Shown: in pieces, positions 386-21,227 of the stretch
How the letters are laid out: each line of letters starts with the position of its first letter
How positions within the stretch are numbered: position 1 is the first letter of the stretch
Source of the DNA: an uncultured Spirochaetota bacterium
GTDB lineage: Bacteria; Spirochaetota; Spirochaetia; SZUA-6; Fen-1364
Direction: 5' to 3'
DNA length: 64,000 nt
Assembly (NCBI GenBank): GCA_963781885.1
Contig: CAWAHW010000004.1
Span: 32,001 to 96,000 of the forward strand
The notes under the pieces: generated by a model
Databases searched by the model: none
What the model saw: the letters and a program-made list of their open reading frames with translations, nothing else
Told to the model about the DNA's origin: nothing
Translations under genes and position numbers: made by a program

Positions 386-395
386 AGGAGACAGA

Positions 396-887: not shown

Positions 888-927
888 TGCCTTCCGTACC
901 GCGGGGCATGGGGCCGTCGCGCACCGG

Positions 928-956
928 TTGCTACACGGTGCGCCGGTTGCTATACT
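928..956 (+). promoter_or_regulatory. Sigma70-type promoter of gpmA (probably leaderless)
   Basis: TTGCTA(928-933)-N17-TATACT(951-956) with extended TG; ATG lies 6 nt after the -10 and there is no SD. Confidence 0.6.
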
Positions 957-962
957 GCGGTC

Positions 963-1709: not shown

Positions 1710-1746
1710 CGGCCAAGAGCTTCCCCGAGGCTCCCGGGACACACCC

Positions 1747-3129
1747 ATGACGACTCGGTATCGCGAGGTCACCCTCGGTCACATGCTCACCATCGCCTTC
1801 CCCCTGGTCGTCTCCCAGGGATCGGAGACGGTCATGCTCTTCTGCAACCGGTATTTCGTCTCATTTCTCGGATCGGATTTCATCCCCGCCTCCATGAGCG
1901 GCGGTCTCACGCAGTTCGTCTTCACCTCGTTCTTCGGTGGGGTCGTGGGGTACGTGAACGCGCTCGCCGCGCAGTACCACGGGGCGGGTCGGCCCGAGCG
2001 TTGCGTGCAGGCCGTCTCCCAGGGTTTGCTGCTCTCCGTCATTTTCTACCCCTGCCTTCTCGCGCTCATCCCGCTCGTGCATCGCGGTTTCGGCTGGGCA
2101 GGGCACGATCCGCATCTCATCGCCCTCGAGTTCGCCTATTTCCGCATCCTGATGCTCGGGTCGATGCTCTTTCTCCTGCAGGGCGTGCTCGCGGGCTACT
2201 TCATCGGGACGGGAAAGACGCGAACGGTGATGCTCGCCAGCTTTTTCGGCATCTTCGCGAATATTCCCATGACGTGGCTGCTGGTATTCGGGAAGCTTGG
2301 CGTTCCCCGGCTGGGCATCGAGGGGGCGGCCATCGGCACCCTCTGCGGATCGTTCTTCACGGTCGGCATTCTCTTCATCTCCTACCTGCGGAGTCCTCCC
2401 TACCGCGCCCATCACGGTAGCGGCGCGTGGAAGCCCCGACCGGAGCTCCTTGCACGGCTTCTTCGCTATGGCACGCCGGCAGGCGCGGAGACATTCATCA
2501 ATGTCTTCGCATTCAACCTCTTCGTCCTCCTGATGCAGTCCTACAGCCCTTCGGTTGCCGCCGCCGTCACGATCACGTTCAACTATGACCTTGTCGCCTT
2601 CATCCCGATGCTCGGCGTCGGCGCGGCGGTGACGTCGATGGCGGCCCAGCGCATGGGCGCGGGCGACGTCCGGGGAGCGCGCCGCGTTGCATTTCTCGGT
2701 CTGCGCGTGGCGTGGGGGTACGCGGGCGTCATGATGGTCCTCTTTGTCACGGCCGCGCCTTTTCTGGTGAAGATCTTCTCGGGCGGCTTCACCTCCGGTG
2801 ACGAGGCGATCCTCCCGCTTGCGCAGACGCTGCTGCGCCTTGCCGCGCTCTATACCCTCGGGGACGCGACGCAGGTGGTCTTTTCCGGGGCGCTCCGCGG
2901 CGCCGGTGACACCAAGTGGGTGATGATCATTTCCGGCACCCTGCACTGGATCATGGCGACCGGCTCATTCATCTTCATCCGCATCCTCGTCCTGCCGCCG
3001 GTCGCGGTATGGCTGTTCTTCATCGCGTTTGTCGTCTCCATGGGATTCGCGATGTACCTGCGTCACCGCCGCGGCGCCTGGCAGAAGATGCGCCTCGTGG
3101 AGAGCGCGCCGGCACTCCCCCTGGCATGA
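1747..3129 (+). CDS. MATE family efflux transporter
   Basis: About 12 hydrophobic segments; PRLGIEGAAIGT and GALRGAGDTK signatures. Confidence 0.92.
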   Translation: MTTRYREVTLGHMLTIAFPLVVSQGSETVMLFCNRYFVSFLGSDFIPASMSGGLTQFVFTSFFGGVVGYVNALAAQYHGAGRPERCVQAVSQGLLLSVIFYPCLLALIPLVHRGFGWAGHDPHLIALEFAYFRILMLGSMLFLLQGVLAGYFIGTGKTRTVMLASFFGIFANIPMTWLLVFGKLGVPRLGIEGAAIGTLCGSFFTVGILFISYLRSPPYRAHHGSGAWKPRPELLARLLRYGTPAGAETFINVFAFNLFVLLMQSYSPSVAAAVTITFNYDLVAFIPMLGVGAAVTSMAAQRMGAGDVRGARRVAFLGLRVAWGYAGVMMVLFVTAAPFLVKIFSGGFTSGDEAILPLAQTLLRLAALYTLGDATQVVFSGALRGAGDTKWVMIISGTLHWIMATGSFIFIRILVLPPVAVWLFFIAFVVSMGFAMYLRHRRGAWQKMRLVESAPALPLA

Positions 3130-3217: not shown

Positions 3218-5574
3218 TTAATCCGTCTTTGCGCCGCGCGCGGCGTCGATCTGGCCCGCCAGACGCGCCAGGCGCGTGTCACGGTCCGCGACGAATCGGC
3301 GTATGCCCTCAAGGAGCCACGCAGGAGAGAGATGCGCCTCGTCGAGCACCTCATCCACGGAGCCGCCGGTGCGCCAACGGTTGTCCCAGTCCGTGGAAAG
3401 CGCGTATTCCTCCGCGACCTTGTTGAAAAGCCAGTCGTGCATCAGCCAGCGCGCCTGCGTGGTCACAACGGTGGAATCCATCCTGTCGGCGTCGGAGAGC
3501 ACCTGCCGCCGGTAGTCCTCGCCCTGGCGCGCGAAAAGCTGGGGGCTCGTCACGCAGACCAGCTTCACGTTGAGCGCGCGGAGGTCCGCGATGATCCGCA
3601 CAAGACCCGCCACCGCGCTCGTGCCCTGCGCAATGACCACGCCGCCCCGGCGGGCGCGCGGGTCGAAGTCGCGGACGACGTACGCGCCGCGTGCCGCTTC
3701 GAAGTGGGAGGGCATGCCGAGCGCCGCCCTGTCGGGGATGACGATCGGGGGACGCGTGAGGTGCAAGGCGATGATGGGCACGTCGGTCGCAAGGGCCGCT
3801 CCCAGCAGCACCGGCACCTCGTTGTGCTCCCACGGGTAGAGATTGATGACGCGCCCCTCGGGAAAGAGCTGCGTCACCCCCGGTGAGAACACGCCGAAAT
3901 GCGTGCGGCTGTCCTCCGCTGTCTCGGGGCCCGAATGCCCGGCGACATAGATGACCTTGCCGACCTTGAGCTGGCAGTCCTGCGCAAGCTGGCTGAAGAG
4001 ACGCAGCGGACCGTACAGGAGATAGGAGAATGAGCCGTACGTGGAGGTGGCGCCCCAGAAACCGTCGAAAACCTTCTCTGGCTCCGTGGACAAGTTCACG
4101 CTCGCCATGCCGACCATGATGCCGGCGTTCGCAAACTCCGTGATCTCCTGCGTGAGGAGCGCGCCCTCCGGCGAGCCGTGACGGCCGAACCAGCCCCATC
4201 CCTTGAAGCCGTCGCGCCCCCGCGCGAAGCCGGCGATATTCGTGGACTCCGCAAGGTCTGCGGAAGAGGCGATGATCAGCGGCCGGCCGTACTCTTTCTC
4301 TCCGAAGGAATTGATCCATGCGCCCCACTTGGCAAGGGCGGCGCGGTTGGCTGCCGACGTGCCCGGCGCAACGTAGAGGTCCGCGGGATAGTTGCGATAG
4401 TCGAAAAGCCGCGCGTCCGTGAAGGGGTTTCCTTTTGCGCCGAGACGGAAGCCGGGGATGTCGCGCGGCACGCTTTCCCCCAGCTCCACGAGCCTTTCGG
4501 CGAGGTAGTCGACCAGCGCACCGTCGCGGTGCAGCACGTCGATGACGGCCGCGAGGTTCGCAAGGCATTCCTCCCGCACGGCCGCAGGATCTTTGGGCGC
4601 CGCACCCCCGACATTCACGAAATGCGCGCCGTATTTTTCCGCGAACTCGCGGCGCAGCTGCCAGAACTTGTCGTCATTCATCTTGTGCGGCGTCCCGTGC
4701 GACGCGGCGTCATAGGTGAGGTAGCCGCGACCCTTGCGCGTCTTGAACCAGGCAGCGCTGGGAAGCGATTCGGGATTCTCCGCCCGCACCAGCTCCAGGA
4801 GCGTCCGGGTCACGGGACCCCAGGCGCTTCCCTCCTCCGTGCCGACCACGCGCCAGCCGTGACCGCCGAACCAGTCGCGCGGCGTGCCGGGCACGGCGTC
4901 GCTCACCCGGTGCTCGTCGATGCCATAGTCGTTCCAGTCGACCACGTAGTAGAGATTGTCCAGCGCGAGGCCCCAGGCGGAGTTCATCGTCTCGTGGGTG
5001 ACCCCGGGTGTAAGCCCCCCTTCCCCCTCGAAGATGAATACCTTGACGCCTTCCGCGCCGGCCCGTTTCAGCGCCACCGCCTCCCCGGCCGCTGCCGGGC
5101 TGCCATGACCGGAAGGGCCGGTGTTGAACTTCAGGAAGAGGCTCTTCCCTTCCATCTCCGCGTGGCCGGAGAGCCCCTTGTGCCGGCGGAGCATGGCGAG
5201 GTCCTCCCAGGTGAGCGTGCGCGCGGCGCCGCCGGGGACGGCGTACCGTGCATCGCCGGTCTCCCGGTGTTTCACCCGCAGAGCCTCGTTGAAGAGCGCG
5301 AGGGTGGCATAGATCATCGGCACCGTGTGCCCGGCGCCCAGCACGAACCGGTCGCCGAATCGCTTTTCCGGGTCCGGATGTCCCAGCGCATGACGCCGCC
5401 CAGGAGGGTCGCGATGAGGATGTGGAGCTTCGACCGGGAGCCGCCGGGGTGGCCGCTCTGTCGGTAGTTGAGCATGATGTCGAGAAGCTGCTCGATCAGA
5501 TCCTTCGTCTTTTCCCACTGCGGGAAAAGCGGCTCGAGTGACCGACAGCTTGTCTCGACGTCATTCATTTCCAT
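3218..5574 (-). CDS. tkt: Transketolase-like ThDP enzyme (~785 aa), split by a 1-nt frameshift near 5374
   Basis: N-terminal QSGHPGGSRS (ORF 5314..5574) continues as DPEKRFGDRFVLGAGH in ORF 3218..5518; SGHAE, NTGPSGHG, ThDP motif GEGG..N, SADL, and C-terminal transketolase domains. Confidence 0.85.
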
Positions 5575-6689
5575 CAGTGAAGCAGCTTCTCCAGAGGGCT
5601 GTAGGCGAGGTCAAAACTTTCCGCGACCGCGCGGCAGGTGATGGCTCCGTCGAAGAGATTGATGCCCTTTGCAATGGCCCGGCTGGAGGCAGCGGCCGCT
5701 TCCAGTCCCTTGGACGCAATGGTAAGGCCATACGAATCGGTCATATTTGTCAAGGCTATCGTGGAAGTCTTTGCCACGGCGCCGGGCATGTTCGCGACGC
5801 AGTAGTGCACGATGGAATCCACGATGAATGTCGGCGCGTCGTGCGTCGTGGGGTGCGTGGTCTCCACGCATCCTCCCTGGTCCACCGCGACGTCGACGAT
5901 GACGGAGCCCCTCTTCATGCTCGCCAGGTGCCCCTTGCGCAGGAGGATCGGGGCGCGCGCGCCGGCAACGAGCACCGCGCCGATGATCAGGTCGCTTTCC
6001 TCCGCGAGCTTCGCGATGTTCGCCTCGTTGCTGATGAGCGTCGTCACCTGGCCGCCGAAGAGGTCGTCCACGAACTCCAGCCTCTCGGGATTGAGGTCGA
6101 TCACCGTCGTTGCCGCGCCCAGACCGACGGCGATCTTTGCCGCGTTCAGGCCCACGGTTCCCGCGCCCAGGATGCCGACCCTCCCCTTGTCCACGCCGGG
6201 AACGCCGCCGAGCAGGACCCCGCTTCCGTTCTGGGGATTCTCCAGGCATTTCGCGCCTTCCTGGACGCTGAGACGTCCCGCGATCTGGCTCATCGGTTTG
6301 AGGAGGGGAAGCGTATGATCGTCCGTCTCGATCGTTTCGTAGGCCACCGCGCGCAGCCCACGCTCCCGCAGCGCATCGGTGAGCGTCCGATCCGCGGCCA
6401 GGTGCAGATAGGTGAAGAGGATCTGGCCGGGATGGAAGCAGTCATACTCCGCCGGCTGGGGCTCCTTCACCTTCACGATCATGTCGGAGAGGGCGAAAAT
6501 CTTCCGCGGGTCATCGACGATCGCGGCCCCCGCTCGCGCGTAGTCCGCATCGTCGAAACCCGCGCCGCGACCCGCCCCTTCCTGGATGGCCACGGTATGG
6601 CCGTTCTCCACGTATCGACGAGCCGACGCGGGCGTGAGCCCGACGCGGTACTCGTGACGCTTCACTTCCTTCAGACAGCCTATCCTCAT
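5574..6689 (-). CDS. ald: Alanine dehydrogenase
   Basis: MRIGCLKEVKRHEYRVGLTP, KVKEP, FTYLHLAA, LLGGVPGV, DVAVDQGGC, HYCVANMPGAV. Confidence 0.97.
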   Translation of the reverse strand: MRIGCLKEVKRHEYRVGLTPASARRYVENGHTVAIQEGAGRGAGFDDADYARAGAAIVDDPRKIFALSDMIVKVKEPQPAEYDCFHPGQILFTYLHLAADRTLTDALRERGLRAVAYETIETDDHTLPLLKPMSQIAGRLSVQEGAKCLENPQNGSGVLLGGVPGVDKGRVGILGAGTVGLNAAKIAVGLGAATTVIDLNPERLEFVDDLFGGQVTTLISNEANIAKLAEESDLIIGAVLVAGARAPILLRKGHLASMKRGSVIVDVAVDQGGCVETTHPTTHDAPTFIVDSIVHYCVANMPGAVAKTSTIALTNMTDSYGLTIASKGLEAAAASSRAIAKGINLFDGAITCRAVAESFDLAYSPLEKLLH

Positions 6690-6690
6690 C

Positions 6691-7329
6691 TCATCCCCCT
6701 GCCTTTGCGAGCCCCTCATGAAATCCCCTGACGATCAGGAAACCCGTTCGTGCACCCGGGTCCTCGACACCCCGGGATGCGTCCTTGTGGTAGAAACTTT
6801 TTCCGTGGGCGGGCTCCATGCCGCGCGTGGCTTCCATTCCGTCTTTTGCGGCCGTTTCGGCGGCGAGGAGGGCATCCGCAAGGGCGAGCTTGACGGTCCG
6901 GCGAAGCGCCTCGGCCGCGGGAGAAAGCGCGTCCAAGATGGTCTTTTCCCCGAGCTTCGCCTTGCCCCGTTCCATGATCCCCTGGACGAATGCCTCGAAA
7001 AAGGCGGCAAGCGCCGCGACGTCGATGTCCTGCCGACCGGCAACGGCCTTCCCGCCCTTCATGAATCCAGTGGCCACGAGCGTCCCCATGGTGGAGGGGG
7101 CGGCTTTTGCGACGGCCATGCCGACCTTCAGGAAGCACTTTCCGACGTCGGTCTCCGTGGACGCCGCCATCTCCACGTCCGCGGCGTGAAAGGCCTTTGC
7201 CATTGTCAGGCCCAGGTCGCCGTCTCCCATGAGGCTGTCCAGCTCCGTGAGCCGATCCTTGTCGGCATCCACCAGCTCCCGCATCCGGCGAAATACAGCC
7301 GGGAGCTCACGCGCGGCGAATGTTGTCAT
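6691..7329 (-). CDS. dhaL: Dihydroxyacetone kinase subunit L (DAK2 domain)
   Basis: LTELDSLMGDGDLGLTM, RGKAKLGEKTILDAL, DPGA motifs. Confidence 0.92.
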   Translation of the reverse strand: MTTFAARELPAVFRRMRELVDADKDRLTELDSLMGDGDLGLTMAKAFHAADVEMAASTETDVGKCFLKVGMAVAKAAPSTMGTLVATGFMKGGKAVAGRQDIDVAALAAFFEAFVQGIMERGKAKLGEKTILDALSPAAEALRRTVKLALADALLAAETAAKDGMEATRGMEPAHGKSFYHKDASRGVEDPGARTGFLIVRGFHEGLAKAGG

Positions 7330-7338
7330 GAAAGCCTC

Positions 7339-8352
7339 CTACAGCGGAATCTGGCCCTGCTGGAAGAAAGGCGTGCTCGCGGGGCGCGCAAGGAGCTGCC
7401 GGAGCTCGGCGTCCAGCCGCAGGAGGGAGATCGACATGCCCGCCATTTCCATTGACGTGGCGAACTCCCCCGCGTACACGCGGAACACGCCGATACCTTC
7501 CCGCGCCAGGATCTGTCCGATGCGGCGATACGCGATGTACAGCTCCTCCGCCGGCGTCCCACCCAGGCCGTTCACGAGCACGGCGACCTCGTCGCCGCGG
7601 CGGTACGGCAGATCGCCAAGCAACGGCTCCATCATCTCATCCACGATGGCATCCGCCTTCTTCAGCTTGCCCCGTCTCACGCCGGCCTCGCCATGGATGC
7701 CCATGCCGATCTCCATCTCCTCATCGCCGAGTGTGAATGTGGGCTTGCCGACTTCAGGGATGATGCACGGCGAGAGGGCGACGCCCATGGTCCGCACGTT
7801 CGCCGCGGCTTTCTCCGCCACCCGCTTCACCTCTGCGAGCGGGGCAAGCTCGTCCGCCTTTGCCCCGGCGACCTTGTAGACGAAAACGATGCCCGCGACG
7901 CCGCGGCGCTTGTCTTCCTGTCCCTTTGGCGCCGAGGCGACGTCCTCTGCCGCGGCAAGGGACTCCACGTGGATCCCTTCCACGTCGGCCATCTCGGCAG
8001 CCATGTCGAAGTTGATCACGTCGCCGCTGTAGTTGCCGTAGATATAGAGCACGCCGGCGCCGCCATCGATTGCCTTCGTCACGTTCAGCATCTGCTCGGC
8101 GCTCGGGGACTGGAAAACGCCGCCCACGGCGCAGCCGTCCAGCATTCCGTCACCGACGTAGCCGACGAAAAGGGGAAGGTGGCCCGAGCCGCCGCCGGTG
8201 GAGAGCCCCACCTTGCCCTTCCGCGGGGAGCCGGCCTTCACGATGCAGCGCAGGTCGTTTGCAACCGAGACGATCCTTGTGGGATGCGCGGCGATGAGGC
8301 CCTGGATCATCTCATCCACGAAATCCTCCGGCCTGTTCATGAACTTCTTCAT
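7339..8352 (-). CDS. dhaK: Dihydroxyacetone kinase subunit K (DAK1 domain); may be a tetrulose-kinase paralogue
   Basis: GGGSGHLP, GGVFQSPS, NYSGDVINF, RRGVAG, EIGMGIHGEAG; GGAGG RBS before ATG 8352. Confidence 0.93.
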   Translation of the reverse strand: MKKFMNRPEDFVDEMIQGLIAAHPTRIVSVANDLRCIVKAGSPRKGKVGLSTGGGSGHLPLFVGYVGDGMLDGCAVGGVFQSPSAEQMLNVTKAIDGGAGVLYIYGNYSGDVINFDMAAEMADVEGIHVESLAAAEDVASAPKGQEDKRRGVAGIVFVYKVAGAKADELAPLAEVKRVAEKAAANVRTMGVALSPCIIPEVGKPTFTLGDEEMEIGMGIHGEAGVRRGKLKKADAIVDEMMEPLLGDLPYRRGDEVAVLVNGLGGTPAEELYIAYRRIGQILAREGIGVFRVYAGEFATSMEMAGMSISLLRLDAELRQLLARPASTPFFQQGQIPL

Positions 8353-8366
8353 GGTTCCTCCAATCG

Positions 8367-9224
8367 TCAGAAGCTCTTCAGCCCCGGGCCCGATCGCTGG
8401 GAGATGTGCCAGGGGATGAATTGTCTTTCCAGGAGCCGCACAAGGTAGTACTGGCTCAAACCCAGGAGGGCGAGGACGACGATGACGGCAAACGCAAGGC
8501 TCATGTGGAGCTCGCCCGTCTGGATCTGCAGGTAGTAGCCCAGTCCCGTGTCCCCTCCGATCCACTCCCCGACCGTCGCGCCCACCGTGGCGTTCACCGC
8601 GGCCCAACGGAAACCGACGAATATCTGCGGAAGGGCGGCGGGAAGACGTATTCGCAGGAAGGTGGCCGTCTGGCCCGCGCCGGTCGTACGCGCGAAGAAC
8701 GAGAGCTCCTGGCTCATCGACATGAATCCCAGGATGCAATTGAGCAGGATCGGGAAAAAGCAGACGAGGAACGTGATCAGGATCTTCGGCGTGATGCCGA
8801 AGCCGAACCAGGTGATGAAAAGGGGGGCGAGCGCGATCTTCGGCACGAGCTGGAACGCGACGACGCCGGGATAGAAGGTGCGCTTCATGATGGGCGAAAA
8901 GGCGATCAGCAGGGAAAGCGGGACCCCGATGAGGATCGCCAGGACGAAGCCGCCGTAGCTTTCGTAGGCGGTGACGCCCAGGTAGCCCAGCATGAACGGG
9001 AAGTGGAGCACGAGCTGGACGACGACGGAGACCGGCCCGGGCAGGATGTAGGTCGGGACGCGGAGAATGTCGACCAGTACCTCCCAGAGGACGAAGAAAC
9101 CGAGTATGCCGAATATCGTCACGCGGATGTCGTTGGCCTTCCTCGACCCGCCCCGGTGCGCCGACCGCCCGCCAACATTCCTTTTTCCGCGGAACCCCCC
9201 CGCGGTGCCGGCCCGGTCAGCCAT
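8367..9224 (-). CDS. ABC transporter permease (NitT/TauT family)
   Basis: VPKIALAPLFITWFG, LPAALPQIF..GATVGEWIGG; start overlaps the upstream stop. Confidence 0.92.
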   Translation of the reverse strand: MADRAGTAGGFRGKRNVGGRSAHRGGSRKANDIRVTIFGILGFFVLWEVLVDILRVPTYILPGPVSVVVQLVLHFPFMLGYLGVTAYESYGGFVLAILIGVPLSLLIAFSPIMKRTFYPGVVAFQLVPKIALAPLFITWFGFGITPKILITFLVCFFPILLNCILGFMSMSQELSFFARTTGAGQTATFLRIRLPAALPQIFVGFRWAAVNATVGATVGEWIGGDTGLGYYLQIQTGELHMSLAFAVIVVLALLGLSQYYLVRLLERQFIPWHISQRSGPGLKSF

Positions 9225-10015
9225 TACATGCCCTCCTGGCGCTGCGAGATGTGCCACCGCAGGAGCCGCCCCTCCACGAGGGCGACGAGACCGTACAAGG
9301 CAAGCCCGAGCGCCGTGAGGACGATGATGGAAGCAAGCGCGAGGTCCGTGCGGAACGCCCCCGAGGAAACGGCGATGTAGTAGCCCAGACCCGCGTTCCC
9401 GCCGACCCATTCGGCGATCGTGGCGCCGACGGTGGCGTTGATCGCCGCGCCCTTCAGACCGATGAACACCTGGGGCAGCGCGGCGGGGAACCGGATCTTC
9501 CAGAACGTCCGCAGCGGGCTCGCGCCCGTGGACTGGCTGAAGAACTCCAGGTACTCATTCAGAGAGAGGAAGCCGAAGACGGCGTTGATCAGGATCGGGA
9601 AGAAGCAGACGAGAAAGACGACGACCATCTTCGAGCTGAACTGAAAGCCCAGCCAGACGACGAAAATGGGGGCAAAAGCGATCTTCGGGACCATCTCCAG
9701 CGTCACCGCGGCCGGGTAGAGCGTCTGGCGCATGAAGCGCGAAAAGGCGACGAGGATGGAGAGCGGGATCGCGAGGGCGGCGGAGATCGCGAAGCCCACC
9801 AGCGTTTCCACCGCGGTCGCCAGTGTATGGTGGCCGATGACGCGTATGTTCGTGACAAGCTGCGTGACGACGCTGGAAAACGCGGGAAGGATGTAGCGGG
9901 GTATCTTCAGGACCCGCACCGCCGCCTCCCAGAGGGCGCAGAAAAGGATGACGGCGAGCATGGGGAGCCACGAGCCTTTGACCGACCGCATGAATCGCGA
10001 GTCCATCGTGTGCAT
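9224..10015 (-). CDS. ABC transporter permease (NitT/TauT family)
   Basis: VPKIAFAPIFVVWLG, FPAALPQVF..GATIAEWVGG. Confidence 0.92.
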   Translation of the reverse strand: MHTMDSRFMRSVKGSWLPMLAVILFCALWEAAVRVLKIPRYILPAFSSVVTQLVTNIRVIGHHTLATAVETLVGFAISAALAIPLSILVAFSRFMRQTLYPAAVTLEMVPKIAFAPIFVVWLGFQFSSKMVVVFLVCFFPILINAVFGFLSLNEYLEFFSQSTGASPLRTFWKIRFPAALPQVFIGLKGAAINATVGATIAEWVGGNAGLGYYIAVSSGAFRTDLALASIIVLTALGLALYGLVALVEGRLLRWHISQRQEGM

Positions 10016-10026
10016 GTGCGGCGGCC

Positions 10027-10794
10027 TCAGACGACCCCGTACCCCATGAAGACCTCCTTGATCTCGGCTTCATGGCGCGCGAACTTCTCGCTCTTCAGGA
10101 CGGAAAAATCCCGCGGCCGGGGGAGGTCGATGTCGATCGTCCGATCCACCATACCGGGGCGCGGGGTGATGAGCACGACGCGGTCGGAGAGCTGCACGGC
10201 CTCCCCGATGTCGTGCGTGACGAAGACGAGCGTCTTGCGCGTCGAAAGCCAGAGCCGCTCGAGGTCGCGGCGCAGCTGCTCGCGCGTCATGGCATCCAGG
10301 GCGCCCAGCGGCTCATCCATCAGGATCAGCGGGGGATCGTGGATGAGCGCCCGGCAGAAAGCGGTGCGCTGCTGCATGCCCCCGGAAAGCTCGTAGGGAT
10401 GCTTGTGGAGAAAGTCCTTCAGCCCGACCGACGTGAGGAGCTGGACGGCCTTGGCTTCATACGCGGCGCGATCCAGCTTGCGCATCTCGATCTGGAGAAG
10501 CACGTTGCCCAGCACGTCGCGCCAGTCGACCAGCACGGGGCTCTGAAATACGATGCCAATGTTGGTCTGGGGCTCGCGCACCTCCCTGCCCTCGATTGCG
10601 ATGGCGCCCTCCGTAGGCTCGACCAGGCCCGCGATCATCATGAGCAGGGTGCTCTTGCCGCAGCCCGAGGGCCCGAGCAAGGAGACGAACTCCCCCCGCT
10701 TCACCTGGAGACTCAACGGTCCCACCGCGTGCACGGCGTCCTTGCGCGACGCGAACACCTTCTTCACCGCGTCCAACCTGATGGCATCGTCCAA
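10027..10794 (-). CDS. ABC transporter ATP-binding protein (NitT/TauT family)
   Basis: Walker A GPSGCGKS, signature LSGGMQQR, Walker B ILMDEP, H-loop VTHD. Confidence 0.96.
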   Translation of the reverse strand: MDDAIRLDAVKKVFASRKDAVHAVGPLSLQVKRGEFVSLLGPSGCGKSTLLMMIAGLVEPTEGAIAIEGREVREPQTNIGIVFQSPVLVDWRDVLGNVLLQIEMRKLDRAAYEAKAVQLLTSVGLKDFLHKHPYELSGGMQQRTAFCRALIHDPPLILMDEPLGALDAMTREQLRRDLERLWLSTRKTLVFVTHDIGEAVQLSDRVVLITPRPGMVDRTIDIDLPRPRDFSVLKSEKFARHEAEIKEVFMGYGVV

Positions 10795-10873
10795 AACGTG
10801 GGCTCCTCTTTCCGGCGCGTGAGGGAGGCATCGGCGTCACCTTCGCCTCCGGGAATACGGTTCCTCTGATCGG

Positions 10874-10938
10874 CGGGTGCGGAGGGGATCCGACCGCGCC
10901 GCACCCGAATGCGGCGCGCGGCGGGACCGCCGCGCGCC
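10874..10938. terminator. Two GC-rich intergenic stem-loops downstream of the SBP gene (mRNA stabiliser or attenuator)
   Basis: CGGGTGCGG(10874-82)/CCGCACCCG(10899-907) and GGCGCGCGGCGG-GA-CCGCCGCGCGCC(10913-38); no U-tract. Confidence 0.45.
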
Positions 10939-10947
10939 CGGAATCTC

Positions 10948-11964
10948 CTATTTCAAGAAGTCGTTCGTGTAGAATTGGGACGCCTGCATGGTCGTCTGGA
11001 GCCCCGAGAACTTCTGCAGGAGGCTCTCCGCGCTTTCCCAATCCTTCGCGACGTTCAGCCCCAGCACCTTGTCGGTGTTGTTGGGAGAGTAAAGGATGGA
11101 CAGGGTCACGTCCAGGACGGTCCGCGCCTGCTTTGCATCGACGGCGGCGCCGCCGGCCCACCGAACGAGGGACTGGATGCACGCATCGGGGTCGGCCTGT
11201 GCCGCCTGGATGGACTGCACCGTGGCCTTCACGAAGCGCCGCACGAGGTCGGGATTGCTCTTCACGAGGTCGGTGTTCGCCACGATGGAGTATCCCGGCT
11301 GGTACACGCCGTAGGAGGAGTACGGGATTTCGACAGGCATCTGGCCGCCCTCGGCCACGATTTGCGCGGGCTTGTCGTCGATGCCGCCGAGCATGGCAGG
11401 CGCAAGACCCTGGAGGTAGCTTGCGACGAGGGCGTTTTCAGAGACGTTCACGAGCTCGATGGAGCTGGGATCGACGCCGGCGTTCTGCGCCGCGACGGCG
11501 AAGAACGTGTTCACGCCGGCGCCCGCCGTCGTGAGGACCTTCTTGCCCACGAGGTCCTTGAATGTCTTGATGCCGGAATCCGGCCGCGCGAGCACGGCGT
11601 CCGTGCCCATCGCGTCGACCTCCATGACGGAGATCACCGGGGCAGCCTGCGCCGCGAGGTTCATCATCGTCGCCGACGAGACGTAGGCGAAGGTGTCTTC
11701 CTTGTTCGCGACGAGCCTCACCGCGTTGCCGGAGCCGTTGCCCTGGCGCACGACGAGGTCGATGCCCTGCGCCGCGTAGAACCCCTTGTCGATGCCCAGG
11801 AAAAAGATGCCGTGGGACCCGTAGAAGAGCCAGTTCGTGCGGAGCGTCACCTTGTCCATGCCCGGTTTCGCGGACTCTTTCGCTCCGTTTGCGAAGACGG
11901 CCCCGACCAGACAAATGCCCAGCACGACCGCGAGCATTGTGACGACCAACCTTTTGCGAATCAT
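10948..11964 (-). CDS. ABC substrate-binding protein, NMT1/THI5-like
   Basis: Signal peptide, VTLRTNWLFYGSH..KGFYAAQGIDL..GNGS; AGGAGG RBS. Confidence 0.9.
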   Translation of the reverse strand: MIRKRLVVTMLAVVLGICLVGAVFANGAKESAKPGMDKVTLRTNWLFYGSHGIFFLGIDKGFYAAQGIDLVVRQGNGSGNAVRLVANKEDTFAYVSSATMMNLAAQAAPVISVMEVDAMGTDAVLARPDSGIKTFKDLVGKKVLTTAGAGVNTFFAVAAQNAGVDPSSIELVNVSENALVASYLQGLAPAMLGGIDDKPAQIVAEGGQMPVEIPYSSYGVYQPGYSIVANTDLVKSNPDLVRRFVKATVQSIQAAQADPDACIQSLVRWAGGAAVDAKQARTVLDVTLSILYSPNNTDKVLGLNVAKDWESAESLLQKFSGLQTTMQASQFYTNDFLK

Positions 11965-12078
11965 ACGAGACCTCCTCTGCACACCCATTCGACGGGTAGA
12001 AACTCTACCCCCGCCCGGTCACACCTGACGACGAACGATCGGCCGCGGTTTCCGAGCTTCGCCGCGGCCGCTCATCAC

Positions 12079-13521
12079 CTATTTGATGCCGAACTTCTTC
12101 TCCGCTTCGCCGAAGACCTTGTCGAAGATCGCGAGCACCCCGTCGAGCTCCGTACGCGCGATGTTCAGCGGCGGGATGAGCTGCAGGCGGTTGTGGTAGT
12201 AGCCACCCTTCTCGAAGACGAGTCCCTCCGCGACGCACCGCGCCAGGACGAATGCGCTCTCCTGCGCGGCAGGCTCCTTCGTCACGCGGTCCCGCACCAG
12301 CTCGAGCCCGGTGTAGATGCCCTTCATGTTGATGTGCCCGAGCAGGGGGTGGCGCTTCTGCAGCTCCTGGAGACCCTTCAGGAAGTACGCCCCCGTCTCG
12401 TTCACCTTCTGGAGAAATGCGGGGGAGGAGACGACGTCCAGGACGTAATTGCCCGCGGCGCAGGCAAGCGCATTTCCCGCCTGCGTGGAGACGTGGGCAC
12501 CCGGCCCCCATTCCTTCAGGATTTCCTCCCGCGCGATGACCGCGGAGATCGGCACCCCTCCCCCGAGAGCCTTGGAGGTGAGGATCATGTCCGGCTCGAT
12601 CTCCGAGTGCTCGAATGCCCAGAGCTTTCCCGTGCGGCCCAGACCCGTCTGTATTTCATCCACGATGAGGAGGATGCCGTGCTTGTCCGCGATCCTCCGC
12701 AGCTCCTGCAGGTATTCCTTGGGGGGGATGTAGTAGCCGGCGGAGCTCTGGAAAGGCTCCACAAGGATTGCCGCCACGTTGCAGATGCCGTTCATGCCGT
12801 CCGTGTACGGGGTTTCCTTGCTGTCCAGGAGCCGGTCCAGAGTGCGGATCTCCTCCATGCCGAAGCCGGGAAACTTGTCCGTCGGCAGGCGGTACTCGTG
12901 CGGGAACGGGAAGTGACCGACCGCCGTGTCGGGGAGCACGGGATAGAAGAACTCCTGGAGGCCACCCTTGCCCGTGAGCCCCATGGTGCCGTACGTCACG
13001 CCGTGATAGTCGCCGTACGCGCTGAGGATGTACGGCTGCCCCGTGTAGTAGCGCGCGGCACGCACCGCCAGCTCCGTCGCATCGGAGCCGGTGACGCCGA
13101 AGATGACCTTCGTCTTGCCGGAAATGCGCGAGTTCTTGCAGAGCTTCTCGGCAAGCTGGATGCGCTGGGGATGGGGGAGATCGAAATAGTGCGTGAGCTT
13201 CCCCGCCTGTTCCTGGATGATCCGCGTGATGTCTTCATTGCACTCGCCGAGTGACGACACAGAGAAGCCAGACAGCAGGTCCAGGTACTCCTTGCCGTCG
13301 ACGTCGTAGAGGTGGGCGCCCTTTGCCCGCTCGATGATCGGCGGCACGTCGAACAAGCCCCAGCCGATGCTCCCGAATGACTCGTACTGCTGCCACTTCC
13401 GCGCCCATTCCTTGCCTTTTGGGCCGAAGGGCGATTTCTCGATCCGCTGGGCGAGGATCTCATCCGTCACCTTCAGCTTTTTTCTCTGGTTGATCTGACT
13501 CTCACGCGCCTTGTTGGTCAT
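12079..13521 (-). CDS. Class III PLP-dependent aminotransferase (GabT/omega-transaminase-like)
   Basis: YDVDGKEYLD, GSDATE, YHG, VEPFQ, DEIQTGLGRTG and PLP lysine in TSKALGGG. Confidence 0.93.
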   Translation of the reverse strand: MTNKARESQINQRKKLKVTDEILAQRIEKSPFGPKGKEWARKWQQYESFGSIGWGLFDVPPIIERAKGAHLYDVDGKEYLDLLSGFSVSSLGECNEDITRIIQEQAGKLTHYFDLPHPQRIQLAEKLCKNSRISGKTKVIFGVTGSDATELAVRAARYYTGQPYILSAYGDYHGVTYGTMGLTGKGGLQEFFYPVLPDTAVGHFPFPHEYRLPTDKFPGFGMEEIRTLDRLLDSKETPYTDGMNGICNVAAILVEPFQSSAGYYIPPKEYLQELRRIADKHGILLIVDEIQTGLGRTGKLWAFEHSEIEPDMILTSKALGGGVPISAVIAREEILKEWGPGAHVSTQAGNALACAAGNYVLDVVSSPAFLQKVNETGAYFLKGLQELQKRHPLLGHINMKGIYTGLELVRDRVTKEPAAQESAFVLARCVAEGLVFEKGGYYHNRLQLIPPLNIARTELDGVLAIFDKVFGEAEKKFGIK

Positions 13522-13571
13522 CGCACGCCTCCGTTGGTGAAATGTGTGTTCCGATCTCGGGCTTCAAATCT

Positions 13572-14729
13572 CTACAAGGCCATTCGGACGAACGCCGCGA
13601 TGCTCTCTTCGGTTATCTCGCGCGGATTGCCCGCCTGGAGATCCTTCGTGCGGTTCTTCAGAATGGCGAGGATGGAAGGCACGGCCTCCTTCGTGACGCC
13701 GAGGTCCGACAGCCGGGCAGGGATGCCGATGTCGTGCAGCAGGGAGCGCACGCGCAGCACCGCCTTTTTTGCCGCCTCGTCCGTGCCGAGCGTCGCCACG
13801 TTCTCCCCCAGGGCCTGGGCGATCCGCGCCAACCTCACCGCGCTCTCCGCGCGGTTGAACTCCATCGCGTAGGGGAGAAGCAGGGCGGCGGTCTCTCCGT
13901 GATGGGTCTTGAAAAGGGCGCCGACTGCTTCGCTCACGTGGTGTCCAATGACCACGTCCACGGCGCTGATGGCGATGCCGGCCAGGCTGCTCGCCCAGCC
14001 CATGGCCAGCCGGTGCTCCAGATTCCGTCCGTCCTGCGTGGCCGCACGCAGGTGCTCTCCGCAGAGCCGGATGGACTCCAAGGCCAGGAGATCGGAAAAG
14101 GGGGTGGCGCGCTTCGTGAGGTACGCCTCGATGCCCTGCGCCAGCACGTCCCCGCCTGCTTTTGCGGTCAGGTCCGGACGGGTCGTGCTCATGAGCTCCG
14201 CGTCGATGATGGCGACCAGTGGAATGATGTAGTCGCTTGCAAAGCCTTCCTTGAGGCGCGCCTTTTCATCGCTGATGACGGCGTACTTCGTGACCTCGCT
14301 GCCCGTGCCGGCCGTGGAAGGCACCCCGATCAGGGGAAGGACCGGCCCGGTGATTTCCTTGCCTCCCACGTAGTCCCAGATGTCGCCGCCGTGCCGCGCC
14401 AGGACCGCGATGCCTTTCGCCACGTCGAGGGCGCTTCCGCCGCCAAGCCCGATCACCAGGTCGATCTTGTCGGCACGCGCCAGCGCTCCCCCCTGGTTCA
14501 CGGTGTCGCGGGACGGGTTGGAATCCACCTTGTCGAAAAGCTCCACGGAGACCCCCGCCTGCTCGAGGGAGCGAGTGGCTTTTGCCGTGTAGCCCGCTTC
14601 CTTCATGCTCTTGCGCCCGGTAACGAGCAGTGCTTTTCTGCCAAGCCTTCTTGCCTGATCGCCAAGGAGTTGCAGTGCCTTTTCGCCGGCGAGAATCCGG
14701 GTGGGTGAATACGATTCAAATCCAAGCAT
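13572..14729 (-). CDS. Iron-containing alcohol dehydrogenase
   Basis: GLGGGSALDVAK, PSTAGTGSEVT, HH..THHG metal ligands; GGAGG RBS before ATG 14729. Confidence 0.93.
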   Translation of the reverse strand: MLGFESYSPTRILAGEKALQLLGDQARRLGRKALLVTGRKSMKEAGYTAKATRSLEQAGVSVELFDKVDSNPSRDTVNQGGALARADKIDLVIGLGGGSALDVAKGIAVLARHGGDIWDYVGGKEITGPVLPLIGVPSTAGTGSEVTKYAVISDEKARLKEGFASDYIIPLVAIIDAELMSTTRPDLTAKAGGDVLAQGIEAYLTKRATPFSDLLALESIRLCGEHLRAATQDGRNLEHRLAMGWASSLAGIAISAVDVVIGHHVSEAVGALFKTHHGETAALLLPYAMEFNRAESAVRLARIAQALGENVATLGTDEAAKKAVLRVRSLLHDIGIPARLSDLGVTKEAVPSILAILKNRTKDLQAGNPREITEESIAAFVRMAL

Positions 14730-14754
14730 TGCAGCCTCCATAACAATCTGGATG

Positions 14755-14785
14755 AACGATAACGATAAACGAAATCGTTATCGTT
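14755..14785. promoter_or_regulatory. Palindromic operator 1 (probable LacI-family site)
   Basis: Perfect AACGATAACGAT-N7-ATCGTTATCGTT, just downstream of a minus-strand TTGACA(14824-19)-N18-TAGAGT promoter. Confidence 0.7.
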
Positions 14786-14880
14786 AATTGACACACTCTA
14801 AACATGTCCGGTCCAATCTGTCAAGAAAAATATTAAAAAATATCAGTTTTGCTTTGTTAATTTTCGCTTAAGTCTGCATG

Positions 14881-14932
14881 TTGACAAATGTGAAAGTTTC
14901 CTATAGCATACTTTAACGATATCGGAAATCGT
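14881..14932 (+). promoter_or_regulatory. Promoter of rraA-lacI with operator 2
   Basis: TTGACA(14881-86)-N17-TAGCAT(14904-09), followed by ACGAT-N7-ATCGT (14916-32), the same core as operator 1. Confidence 0.65.
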
Positions 14933-14958
14933 AAAAGCGAGAGACAAAGGGAGGCGAA

Positions 14959-15708
14959 ATGCGGGAATCCTACTATTCTGCGGCGGAGCTGCAAGTACTG
15001 CGCGCGCTGAGCGTTCCAACGCTTGCAAACGCCCTGGAAACATTCAAGGTGACGAATCCAAACGACGGCTGCTGCGATTCCTCGATTCTCTGCCGTTTTC
15101 CCGCGCTCCCGATCATGGTGGGATACGCGGTGACGTCGAAAGTCACTACCGACCAGCCCATGGGCAAAGCCATGCGCGGCATCGACGAACACGCGTACTG
15201 GGACTTTGTCGCGGGGCTGCCGGGCCCGAAGATCGCTGTCTGCCGGGACGTGGACACGCCGGTTCACGGGGCAATGTGGGGAGAGTTCAACTCGAATGTG
15301 CACAAGGCCCTGGGATGCGAAGGGGCGATCGTGGACGGAGCCGTGCGCGATCTGGACGGCGTTGAAAAGCTCGGCTTCCGGTTCTTCTCGCGCCACGTGC
15401 ATCCCTCCCACGGCAACGGGCTTTTCATCGACTATGGCGGGTCCGTCCGCATCGGGGGCCTGGAAATCGCGACCGGCGACCTTCTCGTCGCGGACCAGCA
15501 TGGCATTATGCGCATTCCCGAATCGGTGCCCCTCAAGGAGCTCGCGGAGACGGCGCGGGAAATCGACAGGCTGGAAAGCGAGGTCTTCGCGCTGTGCAAG
15601 TCTCCTTCATTCTCCGTGAACGACCTGAAGGCGCTCGACGCGAGCGTCATGAAGCGCTGGCCGGATCCGTTGCGCGGAAGGGCCCCGCAGGGGCAGCGGC
15701 ACCATTGA
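14959..15708 (+). CDS. RraA family protein / HMG-aldolase-like (class II pyruvate aldolase or decarboxylase)
   Basis: LANALE, VGYAVT, AMWGE, IVDGAVRD, GDLLVADQHG; GGGAGG RBS. Confidence 0.88.
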   Translation: MRESYYSAAELQVLRALSVPTLANALETFKVTNPNDGCCDSSILCRFPALPIMVGYAVTSKVTTDQPMGKAMRGIDEHAYWDFVAGLPGPKIAVCRDVDTPVHGAMWGEFNSNVHKALGCEGAIVDGAVRDLDGVEKLGFRFFSRHVHPSHGNGLFIDYGGSVRIGGLEIATGDLLVADQHGIMRIPESVPLKELAETAREIDRLESEVFALCKSPSFSVNDLKALDASVMKRWPDPLRGRAPQGQRHH

Positions 15709-15754
15709 TCGCCGTGCTATCATCGACCCTCATGCATGGCAGGGAGCGGACCTG

Positions 15755-16765
15755 ATGGGCGTCACGCTCAAGGAAATCGCGAAGATGGCGGGGGTCTCCG
15801 CCACCACTGTCTCCCGTGTGCTGAATGGAAAGGCGCCCGGCAACATGAGCCGGGAGACCCTGGAAAAAGTCACCCGCATCGTGGAGCTCACCGGCTATGC
15901 GCCGAATCCCGTTGCAAGCTCCCTGCGCAGCGGCTCCAGCAAGGTGATCGGAATCGTCCTGCCCAGCAGCACGAACCCGTACTACGCCCAGCTGGGCTCC
16001 TTCATCGAGAACGAGGCCTACAACAACGAGCACCTCATCTTCGTCTGCAACTCCAACTCCGACGTCGCGCGGGAGCGCCGCTATATCGAGGCGCTGAAGA
16101 ACCACCGGGTGTCGGGCATCCTCCTCTGCAGCACGGGTCTCACCAGCCAGGAGATCCAGGGCCTGCGGGAGGAGAACGCGCGCTGCGTGCTGCTGGACGA
16201 GGAAGTAAAGGACTACCAGGGCGACATCGTCGTGGGCGACGACTGGAGCGGCGGCCGCATGGGCGCGGAGTACCTCTACGGTCTGGGCCACCGGGAGATA
16301 CTCGTCATCCTGGGACCCGAGCAGCTCAGCTCCACGAAGAACAGGCTGGCCGGTTTCCTCTCCTTCTTCGCGTCGATCCCCGATGCCAAGAACACGATCA
16401 CGAATGGGGACTTCACCATCCAGTCAGGGTACGTCGCCGTGAGCGAGAAGCTTCGCCGCGCGCCGTTCACCGCGGTCTTTTCCTTCAACGACCTGATGGC
16501 CATCGGCGCCATCCACGCGCTGCAGACCAGCGGCGCGCGCGTCCCTGCCGACGTCTCCGTAATGGGCTACGACAACATTTTCATCGATCCTTACGTCTCG
16601 CCCGGGATTACGACCGTTTCCACCCCCCTGGACGAGCTGGCACGCACCGCCGTGGCCGCGGTCATTCACAACCCCTCGCAGCCCGCCGTCGCCCTGGGAA
16701 GGCGGACCATACTCCCGCGGATCATCGAGCGGGAATCCTGCGGACAGGCTGCCCGCGGGACCTGA
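15755..16765 (+). CDS. LacI family transcriptional regulator
   Basis: TLKEIAKMAGVSATTVSRVLN HTH, YAPNPVASSL hinge, periplasmic-binding-type C-terminal domain. Confidence 0.96.
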   Translation: MGVTLKEIAKMAGVSATTVSRVLNGKAPGNMSRETLEKVTRIVELTGYAPNPVASSLRSGSSKVIGIVLPSSTNPYYAQLGSFIENEAYNNEHLIFVCNSNSDVARERRYIEALKNHRVSGILLCSTGLTSQEIQGLREENARCVLLDEEVKDYQGDIVVGDDWSGGRMGAEYLYGLGHREILVILGPEQLSSTKNRLAGFLSFFASIPDAKNTITNGDFTIQSGYVAVSEKLRRAPFTAVFSFNDLMAIGAIHALQTSGARVPADVSVMGYDNIFIDPYVSPGITTVSTPLDELARTAVAAVIHNPSQPAVALGRRTILPRIIERESCGQAARGT

Positions 16766-17052: not shown

Positions 17053-17415
17053 TCATTCGACCGCAGCCGTCGGCCGGGCCGAATAGTCCGTGATGCCCAG
17101 CCTGTTTCCGAACGGGTCGTCGAACTCGGCGGCGAGTCCCGTTGCAATCTGGAATGGCGCGGTGACGAACCGGACGCCGCGGGCCTCCAATCTGGCGAAC
17201 TCCTCCCGGACGTCATCCACGGTGAACCATATGGCAGGACGGGAGTCCGGCCGCGCGGTAAGAATGATGGCCGGTTCCTGCGTGCCGACCCTGAAGCCGG
17301 TCATGCCCTTTGACGAGAAATCGAACTTCACATCGAGGCCGAGCACACCCTGATAGAACTCCTTGCCGCGTAACAGGTCGTCTGCCGGAAGAAAGAAATT
17401 GTCATAGTCCTTCAT
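17053..17415 (-). CDS. VOC/glyoxalase family protein
   Basis: FYQGVLG, WFTVDDV, AEFDDPFGNRLG. Confidence 0.9.
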   Translation of the reverse strand: MKDYDNFFLPADDLLRGKEFYQGVLGLDVKFDFSSKGMTGFRVGTQEPAIILTARPDSRPAIWFTVDDVREEFARLEARGVRFVTAPFQIATGLAAEFDDPFGNRLGITDYSARPTAAVE

Positions 17416-17419
17416 CGTT

Positions 17420-18031
17420 TCACCCCTTTTTCTCCGCCAGCGCGGAAATGAGACCATAAAAGTGCTCCACCAATGCCGGGCCATGCCGCTTCAGCACGGA
17501 CTGGCCAGGCGCCGCGAACGAGTCGGCGTGGGAGACGTAATGATGGACCAGACCGATCCAGGTGTTGAAAAGCAGGTGAAAAGGCATGTCCCGAATCACT
17601 CCCGCGGCGGATTCACGCTCGACCGCCTGGCTGAGGTGAAAGGAAATGGCGGACTGGATCATGACGACGGCGCTTTTCGCACGCGGGCTGAGCACCGACT
17701 CCTCCATCACAAGCCGCGCGTACAGAGGCTCGAACTCCGCCAGCCCCTGCACGTGGGCTTCCAGCAGCTCCTTCACGCCGGCGCCGGATTCGGAAAGCTC
17801 GTGGATGCGGCGCGCGACACGGGTGCCAAGCTCGTCGACAACCGCCTCCAGGAGATCCTCGCGCGAGGGAAAGTGGACGAAGACCGCCCCGTGCGAGACG
17901 CCGGCCTCGACGGCGATGTCGGAGGTGCGGGCGGCCGCCAGCCCGTCGCGCGCAAAACGGTCGAATGCCGCGTTCATGAGGAGATGCCGGGTCCGGCTTT
18001 TTCTCTTTGATCGAATGCTCTCAGTAATCAT
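17420..18031 (-). CDS. TetR/AcrR family transcriptional regulator
   Basis: TSDIAVEAGVSHGAVFVHFPSREDL HTH. Confidence 0.94.
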   Translation of the reverse strand: MITESIRSKRKSRTRHLLMNAAFDRFARDGLAAARTSDIAVEAGVSHGAVFVHFPSREDLLEAVVDELGTRVARRIHELSESGAGVKELLEAHVQGLAEFEPLYARLVMEESVLSPRAKSAVVMIQSAISFHLSQAVERESAAGVIRDMPFHLLFNTWIGLVHHYVSHADSFAAPGQSVLKRHGPALVEHFYGLISALAEKKG

Positions 18032-21219: not shown

Positions 21220-21227
21220 GGCTTCAG

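Follow-up and report, generated by a model that had tools for sequence, protein, structure and literature searches.

Which compound might be degraded by a divergent cluster of import, transamination and kinase genes in an uncultured freshwater Spirochaetota bacterium, and do these genes form one pathway? The cluster occupies positions 3218–16765 of a 64-kb stretch of contig CAWAHW010000004.1 (assembly GCA_963781885.1; G+C ~64%), hereafter the window, in which gene families were assigned from the open reading frame (ORF) list together with Pfam and NCBIfam. An earlier note on this DNA had proposed an undescribed route for amino-polyol catabolism, comprising import, oxidation, transamination with alanine recycling, ketose phosphorylation and a closing transketolase step, and every gene that it named was recovered in this interval from ORFs, Pfam and NCBIfam. 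On balance, we lean towards reading eleven of the genes as a LacI-repressed accessory module through which a small hydroxylated primary amine would be taken up and deaminated. The substrate is not readable from sequence, and would most likely be a C3–C4 amino-polyol of the serinol, aminopropanediol or aminotetritol kind.

A divergent cluster with paired operators

The conserved unit comprises 11 genes (5574–16765), in which a minus-strand arm running from an iron-type alcohol dehydrogenase (Fe-ADH) to an alanine dehydrogenase (Ald) faces a plus-strand arm of a RraA-like gene and lacI. Outward from the intergenic spacer, the minus arm encodes the Fe-ADH (13572–14741), a class III pyridoxal phosphate (PLP) aminotransferase (AT; 12079–13521), an NMT1/THI5-type solute-binding protein (SBP; 10948–11988), an ABC ATPase (10027–10794), two ABC permeases (permease 1, 9224–10015; permease 2, of the NitT/TauT type, 8367–9224), the substrate-binding subunit DhaK (7339–8352) and the nucleotide-binding subunit DhaL (6691–7329) of a dihydroxyacetone-type kinase, and Ald (5574–6689). 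The plus arm encodes a long-form RraA-like protein (14959–15708) and a LacI-family repressor (15755–16765). The minus-strand genes are arranged as a tight operon: permease 2 begins within the stop of permease 1, a transketolase-like (TK-like) gene (3218–5574, minus strand) likewise begins within the stop of ald, and 1–14 nt separate the genes at the other junctions between the ATPase gene and ald. Five of the gene pairs either overlap or stand 9–14 nt apart.

The 217-bp spacer between the arms is A+T-richer and contains two divergent sigma-70-like promoters. On the minus strand, TTGACA (14824–14819) is followed by TAGAGT ending at 14795, and operator O1 (14760–14780; TAACGATAAACGAAATCGTTA), a 21-bp palindrome of the form TAACGAT-N7-ATCGTTA, lies just downstream of the −10 element. 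On the plus strand, TTGACA at 14881 is followed by TAGCAT ending at 14909, with operator O2 (14914–14934; TAACGATATCGGAAATCGTAA), which has one mismatch relative to the O1 half-sites, again just downstream of the −10 element. The two matching operators described earlier are real: nothing else in the 64-kb window matches the pattern, for which shuffled sequence predicts 0.06 matches instead of two, and each stands beside a promoter. The same palindrome recurs in the equivalent spacer of a congener, G017 (L098:9700), and upstream of a lacI homologue in locus L121. The regulator itself combines a LacI helix-turn-helix domain (56 bits) with periplasmic-binding-protein-like domains (Peripla_BP_1/3) and, with palindromic sites at the promoters, falls within the LacI family; its best NCBIfam matches are RbsR-like and below cut-off, and it is 86% identical in G017. 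With both operators confirmed, LacI repression of both divergent arms through O1 and O2 is the natural reading, the binding itself being predicted from the sites. An Rfam scan of positions 1–22000 gave no matches.

Conservation of the cluster as a unit

Among 20 congeners an AT orthologue occurs in one, G017 (89% identity); the other AT matches in 61 relatives are paralogues at 33–37% identity. All 11 genes from lacI to ald are present in the same order on G017:C238, with 75–90% protein identity, and no TK-like or MATE gene is found at that cluster. DNA similarity to G017 is confined to 5586–16746, with its limits at the ends of ald and lacI, and the flanks differ from those of the window: a BhcB-like PLP dehydratase gene, two acyltransferase genes and a phage-type integrase lie on the lacI side in G017, and sensor and regulator genes on the ald side. 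In a phylum sample of 401 genomes the AT orthologue was found in 13, of which 11 are among the 17 sampled genomes of one family, and an SBP orthologue was found in none of the 400 genomes sampled besides the window's own (G000, 92.55% complete). Occurrence in a single congener, synteny that ends at ald and lacI, differing flanks and a patchy distribution in the phylum together indicate that the 11-gene module is an accessory and probably horizontally moved unit.

Metagenome contigs carry the core of the cluster as well. One of these, L100, a high-GC locus whose gene content was read by tblastn and Pfam, holds Fe-ADH, AT, SBP, ATPase, two permeases, DhaK, DhaL and a RraA-like gene in one row; L101 and L103 have lacI–rraA opposite Fe-ADH–AT–SBP, and L102 and L104 are partial. 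Conservation elsewhere, which the earlier note had left to be checked, is thereby established by the full set in G017 and the core in L100–L104, and these comparisons support a coherent, regulated and conserved catabolic module.

An aminotransferase unlike GabT

The AT matches Aminotran_3 with 312.8 bits (gathering threshold 30.5) and is a class III enzyme, whose Lys317 aligns with the PLP lysine of E. coli GabT, Lys268, and is invariant in 8 sequences. In GabT, Arg141, Glu211 and Arg398 recognize the carboxylates of 4-aminobutyrate (GABA) and 2-oxoglutarate. The AT is 33% identical to GabT, has an N-terminal extension of ~55 residues that is kept in its family, and differs at all three positions: Val stands in place of Arg141 and Ser in place of Glu211, and the position of Arg398 has Gln, with an arginine (Arg445) two residues before it. 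The loss of Arg141 and Glu211 argues against a GABA aminotransferase, and so against the preference for GABA and 2-oxoglutarate that the earlier note had named as a threat to its proposal. With these recognition residues replaced and a score of 266 bits against 506.65 for TIGR00700, the AT falls outside the GabT/PuuE group.

No NCBIfam equivalog cut-off is reached by the AT, and no Tpa model appears among the best 25 of its 69 NCBIfam matches; sub-threshold matches include a leucine/methionine racemase (273 bits) and the ammonia-lyase PbfA (252 bits). Its best solved relatives are isoleucine 2-epimerase and archaeal amino-acid racemases (269–247 bits), along with GABA aminotransferases. Relatives at 62–89% identity form more than 100 clusters among the matches listed, almost all unnamed or 'GABA-AT-like', so that the AT represents an uncharacterized orthologous family, present in Spirochaetota and, by the source labels of homologues, in KSB3, Clostridiaceae and Bacteroidota. 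The AT has 214 matching records in a plasmid collection, each of them under 60% identity (34% for the 25 listed), and no annotated orthologue was found there.

Gene neighbourhoods were compared across 56 AT orthologue loci (42 metagenome, 14 from the phylum sample; median metagenome contig 8.3 kb). A dehydrogenase of the SDR, Fe-ADH or GFO families is found in 24 of them, any sugar-type kinase in 22 (DhaK in 8, FGGY in 8 and PfkB in 7), a sugar-type SBP in 17, and M20 amidohydrolases and LacI regulators in 10 each; among the loci of at least 8 kb, 16 of 33 have a sugar-type kinase. RraA-like genes accompany the AT in 3 of the 42 metagenome loci. The repeated proximity to sugar-type kinases, dehydrogenases and sugar-type ABC systems fits the conversion of an amine, via a ketose or aldose, to a sugar phosphate.

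Some loci, among them L116, L117, L119, L176 and their relatives, combine the AT orthologue with a non-pyrrolysine MttB-family methyltransferase, an FGGY kinase, an SDR and an M20 amidohydrolase on its flanks. These neighbours hint that methylated or N-acylated forms of the amine are also used.

Proposed alanine recycling and the kinase

Ald passes the NCBIfam equivalog cut-off (TIGR00518, 492.1 bits against 391.85) as the sole protein of the cluster to do so, with DhaK and DhaL narrowly below theirs and the other proteins far below. It is 84% identical in G017. Since another ald lies elsewhere in the window's genome (G000:C2), the cluster copy looks dedicated to the pathway. The proposed link between transamination and Ald is strengthened by its recurrence, ald adjoining the AT gene in L107, L108, L109, L142 and L143 (5 of 48 metagenome loci).

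DhaK and DhaL carry Dak1 (401.6 bits) and Dak2 (136.2 bits) domains, respectively, and just miss the equivalogs TIGR02363 (381.9 against 406.25) and TIGR02365 (127.4 against 138.3). The catalytic residues are kept: DhaK His58, Asp111 and His220 align with His56, Asp109 and His218 of E. coli DhaK, and DhaL Asp31, Asp36 and Asp38 align with the GDxDxG aspartates of E. coli DhaL. Both proteins belong to their families on domains and residues, which bears out the predicted DAK1/DAK2 kinase pair. The DhaK mechanism requires a carbonyl substrate. The cluster DhaK is the sole Dak1 gene in the genome, and PF03610, the family searched for DhaM/EIIA-Man, has no match in that genome at its 92.55% completeness; an ATP-dependent two-subunit kinase is therefore the likely form, rather than a DhaKLM system dependent on the phosphotransferase system (PTS). 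PMC5017801 describes a DhaK cluster of the PTS type, which is unrelated to this module.

Importer, alcohol dehydrogenase and RraA-like protein

The importer consists of an SBP (NMT1, 127 bits) that is probably a lipoprotein, an ATPase (ABC_tran, 117 bits) with a TTG start at 10794 preceded by GAGGAG, and two BPD_transp_1 permeases, the second starting with ATG at 9224 downstream of GGAGG. The best NCBIfam matches of permease 1 are SaoP, SsuC and TauC, all below cut-off, and the system lies outside TauABC/SsuABC (TIGR01729 for the SBP, 46 bits against 304; PRK11365, 80–83 against 347; PRK11248, 201 against 357). The closest solved relatives of the SBP are 4nmy and ThiY (3ix1); in its accessible part, the literature on 'Sao' and 4NMY leads to a selenoprotein-associated ABC family without a known ligand.

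The Fe-ADH (Fe-ADH 174 bits, ADH_Fe_C 136 bits) reaches none of the named equivalogs: GbsB is best at 275.8 bits against 550, followed by FucO (257.8 against 523), SarD (231.5 against 700) and the glycerol dehydrogenase GldA (67.6 against 336), and EutG likewise stays below cut-off. Among solved structures it comes closest to 1,3-propanediol oxidoreductase, NAD-dependent methanol dehydrogenases and lactaldehyde reductase, whose substrates are small hydroxylated aldehydes and alcohols.

The RraA-like protein (Pfam RraA-like, 75 bits) has a fold like that of HMG/CHA aldolases. Its AlphaFold2 (AF2) model (pLDDT 91) matches YER010Cp, PSPTO_3204 and the HMG/CHA aldolase 3noj in Foldseek searches at TM 0.69–0.72 (3noj, 0.69) and ~20% identity, and it is no LigK member by sequence, with 36.2 bits against 304.5 for the model TIGR02798. 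Gly127, Arg130 and Asp131, in a DGxxRD stretch whose residues we take to be the pyruvate and metal ligands of the aldolase, are invariant in 27 homologues. The ESM Atlas returned generic cluster names only ('HMG aldolase/RraA').

In G017, lacI is followed on the same strand by a gene that is absent from the window (L098:6782–7747, on G017:C238) and encodes a PLP enzyme near the beta-hydroxyaspartate dehydratase BhcB (439 bits, cut-off 550). This enzyme could supply oxaloacetate to the RraA-like protein.

The transketolase-like gene

The gene at 3218–5574, called a transketolase in the earlier note, is present, though only as a remote member of the thiamine diphosphate (ThDP)-dependent superfamily that is interrupted and lies outside the block shared with G017. 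Its Pfam matches are at superfamily level (24–44 bits; Transketolase_N 43.8), and TIGR00232 scores 69.4 bits against 682.25, which places it outside transketolase proper. It belongs to a large, widespread and very divergent clade of proteins of ~786 aa, 55–86% identical across Chloroflexota, Spirochaetota, NC10, Marinimicrobia and others, with a GEGG motif in place of the GDG of the ThDP motif. The first 67 codons (ATG at 5574–5572, including SGHPGG) do not share the frame of the remaining gene: in comparison with P0003, P0004 and P0011 ('MRWDIRHPEKRF'), one base is missing at ~5373/5374, which puts the break at codon 67/68. Public Logan contigs leave 5292–5414 uncovered. Because the 67 codons upstream of the break are still highly conserved, the mutation must be very recent unless the assembly is wrong at this site.

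Comparison with homologous loci speaks against a role of this gene in the module. A gene for DhaK, DhaL, Ald, the SBP or RraA is near the TK-like gene in 0 of 79 loci (L001–L079), and 2 of the 79 have a class III AT, at 35% identity. The recurrent neighbours in these loci are instead class I/II aminotransferases (18), Rrf2 regulators (15), malic enzyme-PTA (13), 2-hydroxyacid dehydrogenases (11) and xylose-isomerase-like TIM barrels (10). Within the genus, TK-like genes occur in 2 of 21 genomes, G000 and G017, the same two that hold the cluster. In G017 they are not adjacent to it: one copy lies between a class I/II aminotransferase gene and a GcvT-SHMT fusion, and the other, of the L100 type, follows a PLP enzyme and two class I/II aminotransferases (L182 on G017:C249 and L184 on G017:C39, both near aminotransferases). 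Immediately behind its cluster, the L100 contig carries a TK-like gene of 29% identity that shares the GEGG motif (L100:12289–14376) and is convergent to the cluster and so not part of the operon. We therefore do not count the TK-like gene among the conserved genes of the module, and its reading frame is interrupted as it stands; at most it is a loosely attached addition, for which the overlap with ald and the L100 relative leave some room, and the claimed last step into the pentose phosphate pathway is not supported. More generally, the clade seems to be coupled to aminotransferases, and our guess is a hydroxypyruvate- or serine-linked role.

A housekeeping function for the gene was considered and rejected, as the genome has a canonical transketolase at G000:C4:650072–651034 (426 bits to PF00456). 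In G017, 95 residues of a window-type TK-like gene survive at 77% identity next to a DDE transposase (L183:160–2484, on G017:C36), which suggests that the gene is decaying in the congener.

A proposed pathway and its alternatives

The idea of amino-polyol catabolism is borne out in part, in so far as the genes form a regulated, conserved module, the AT is not GabT-like and kinases recur among its neighbours; the transketolase step lacks support, and a hydroxylated amino acid is an equally possible substrate. From the gene content we infer the following direction and order of reactions. Without inducer, LacI bound at O1 and O2 would block both divergent promoters; with inducer present, the lipoprotein NMT1-type SBP and its ABC partners would bring in the amine, and the AT would transfer its amino group to pyruvate. 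The dedicated second Ald would then convert alanine to pyruvate, ammonium and NADH. The carbonyl product, which might be dihydroxyacetone, glyceraldehyde or a tetrulose, would be bound by DhaK on His220 and phosphorylated from the nucleotide on DhaL, probably ATP, for entry into glycolysis. The Fe-ADH may prepare the carbonyl compound, or re-oxidize the NADH from Ald by aldehyde reduction, and the RraA-like protein may be a metal-dependent pyruvate-forming lyase or an oxaloacetate decarboxylase, and in either role would provide or regain the amino acceptor.

Several observations weigh against this pathway. The closest solved relatives of the AT are epimerases and racemases of alpha-amino acids and GABA aminotransferases rather than omega-transaminases of the pyruvate type, and the alpha-amino-acid enzymes among them make a hydroxylated amino acid as possible a substrate as an amino-polyol. 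A sugar-type kinase is lacking from 34 of the 56 AT loci, many of them on short contigs. Ald is absent from all 14 phylum-sample AT loci and from L100, whose contig ends 62 bases past the TK-like ORF. That DhaM is absent is judged from a genome that is not complete, and if the substrate were serinol, neither the RraA-like protein nor the Fe-ADH would have a necessary role. Ald alone reaches an equivalog cut-off, so that the specificities of the other enzymes are provisional, and we know of no natural source of the proposed amines in the habitat.

The amino-acid relationships of the AT lead to an alternative that we regard as rather unlikely. A hydroxylated alpha-amino acid or 2-amino-2-deoxy-aldonic acid would be converted by the AT to a hydroxy-2-oxo acid, which the RraA-like protein would cleave to pyruvate and a triose-type aldehyde or ketone; the pyruvate would be reused as acceptor, and the second product phosphorylated by DhaKL or reduced by the Fe-ADH with NADH from Ald. 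In a variant, the ThDP-dependent TK-like enzyme could decarboxylate the 2-oxo acid. This scheme employs every enzyme, including the HMG/CHA-aldolase-like RraA protein, and accords with nearest solved relatives that act at the alpha carbon of amino acids, with the PfkB kinases (a family that includes 2-keto-sugar-acid kinases) beside 7 of the 56 AT orthologues, with TK-like genes that often adjoin aminotransferases (18 of 79 loci, G017:C249 and G017:C39), and with the beta-hydroxyaspartate-dehydratase-like gene directly after lacI in G017. It accords less well with AT–DhaK pairs in L109, L110 and L111 for which no RraA-like or other aldolase was found, or with the rarity of RraA-like genes at metagenome AT loci (3 of 42); no natural amino acid suggests itself as candidate, and aldolase activity is putative for this RraA-like subfamily. 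The same relatives, isoleucine 2-epimerase and amino-acid racemases among the best PDB matches and racemase and PbfA among the sub-threshold models, raise the question of whether the AT is a transaminase in vivo at all. It might be a class III racemase or epimerase, or an ammonia- or phospho-lyase acting on the kinase product, and kinases are indeed the commonest enzymatic neighbours of the AT; a dedicated Ald and the recurrent AT–Ald adjacency nevertheless fit alanine/pyruvate cycling, and DhaK chemistry, with His220 kept, requires a carbonyl and could not phosphorylate an amino alcohol for a phospho-lyase. We consider this improbable.

The importer points in another direction again, towards nitrogen scavenging from a taurine-like sulfonate or phosphonate, in which TauABC-type import and an amine:pyruvate transaminase with Ald would be followed by reduction of the sulfo- or phosphono-aldehyde by the Fe-ADH. 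Its NitT/TauT type, the sub-threshold matches to TauA/SsuA, TauC/SsuC and TauB, the classic taurine logic of Tpa and Ald, and sub-threshold Fe-ADH matches to SarD (231 bits against 700) and a Phn Fe-ADH are in keeping with this. DhaK and DhaL, however, have no role on sulfonates and yet accompany the AT more constantly than any other gene in this type of cluster, the taurine-specific models all score far below cut-off, and no desulfonating enzyme is present, making such a function highly improbable. The complete scheme of the earlier note, in which the TK-like enzyme passes the phosphorylated ketose to the pentose phosphate pathway, has in its favour the overlap of the TK-like start with the ald stop, the related gene directly after the L100 cluster and the co-occurrence in the same 2 of 21 genus genomes. 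The frameshift, the position outside the syntenic block, the 0 of 79 loci with module genes, the convergent orientation in L100 and the canonical transketolase elsewhere in the genome all speak against it, and we give it little chance of being correct.

Beyond the single locus, there is a wider reading, which we offer as tentative: the AT may represent a widespread family of 'amino-sugar/amino-polyol (or 2-amino-aldonate):pyruvate' transaminases that form the entry to modular catabolism, with transamination followed by whichever sugar kinase suits the product (DhaKL, PfkB or FGGY), with transporters, M20 deacylases and dehydrogenases interchangeable, and with the GEGG TK-like clade acting on aminotransferase products.

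Relation to known systems

The logic of the module joins two known motifs, an amine:pyruvate transaminase with Ald and an Fe-ADH with DhaKL. Catabolism of taurine and omega-amines relies on an amine:pyruvate aminotransferase and alanine dehydrogenase (Tpa/Ald), and shares with the module a NitT/TauT-type ABC importer, a class III PLP enzyme and a dedicated Ald through which pyruvate is regenerated and ammonium set free. Unlike Tpa, the AT has no taurine-specific model match among those listed; the carbon skeleton passes here through DhaK/DhaL instead of a desulfonating ThDP enzyme, and LacI regulation and the Fe-ADH and RraA-like partners are further differences. The E. coli gldA-dhaKLM genes and the Klebsiella dha regulon have in common with the module a DhaK/DhaL pair with its catalytic residues, and the best solved relative of the Fe-ADH is the 1,3-propanediol oxidoreductase DhaT of the dha regulon. 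In contrast to such glycerol and dihydroxyacetone dissimilation, no DhaM/EIIA-Man was found in the genome, no glycerol dehydrogenase or dehydratase is present in the cluster, and the cluster combines the kinase with an aminotransferase, Ald and an importer of the amine type.

Pathways for tetritols and D-apiose use DAK-family erythrulose kinases or an apulose-4-phosphate transketolase. They resemble the module in phosphorylating a polyol-derived ketose, which the apiose route then passes to transketolase, but differ in that entry here is by transamination and not by a polyol dehydrogenase alone, that the TK-like gene is of a different, divergent clade and broken, and that tetritol isomerases are absent. 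The RraA-like protein shares its fold (TM ~0.7) and an Arg-Asp pair with the HMG/CHA aldolases (LigK/ProA), YER010Cp and PSPTO_3204, whereas identity is ~20% and no aromatic meta-cleavage genes lie near it; the AT likewise shares the class III fold and PLP lysine with E. coli GabT, with Arg141 and Glu211 replaced and Arg398 shifted. As the earlier note had supposed, no characterized pathway with this gene combination turned up in the accessible literature, nor did the AT family or the operator, with subscription-journal papers and supplements outside the reach of the search.

If the proposed function is correct, the module would give anaerobic bacteria of sediments access to both the nitrogen and the carbon of hydroxylated amines, compounds whose turnover has hardly been mapped, and would offer a first clue to the function of a large family of orthologous aminotransferases. 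Transaminase, alanine dehydrogenase and Fe-ADH together form a redox-neutral amination cascade in biocatalysis. Their natural pairing in this cluster mirrors that cascade, and the enzymes could be useful there.

Other features of the window

At lower window coordinates than the TK-like gene, a 542-aa ORF (144–1772, minus strand) that matches neither Pfam nor NCBIfam models extends across the beginning of a MATE efflux gene (1612–3129, plus strand) and may be a spurious ORF of high-GC DNA. Beyond lacI, a glyoxalase-fold gene (17053–17484) and a TetR regulator (17420–18031) precede an error-prone polymerase cassette (18136–22754), in which a DnaE2-type polymerase (PRK05672, 1303 bits) is followed by an ImuB-like IMS-family gene.

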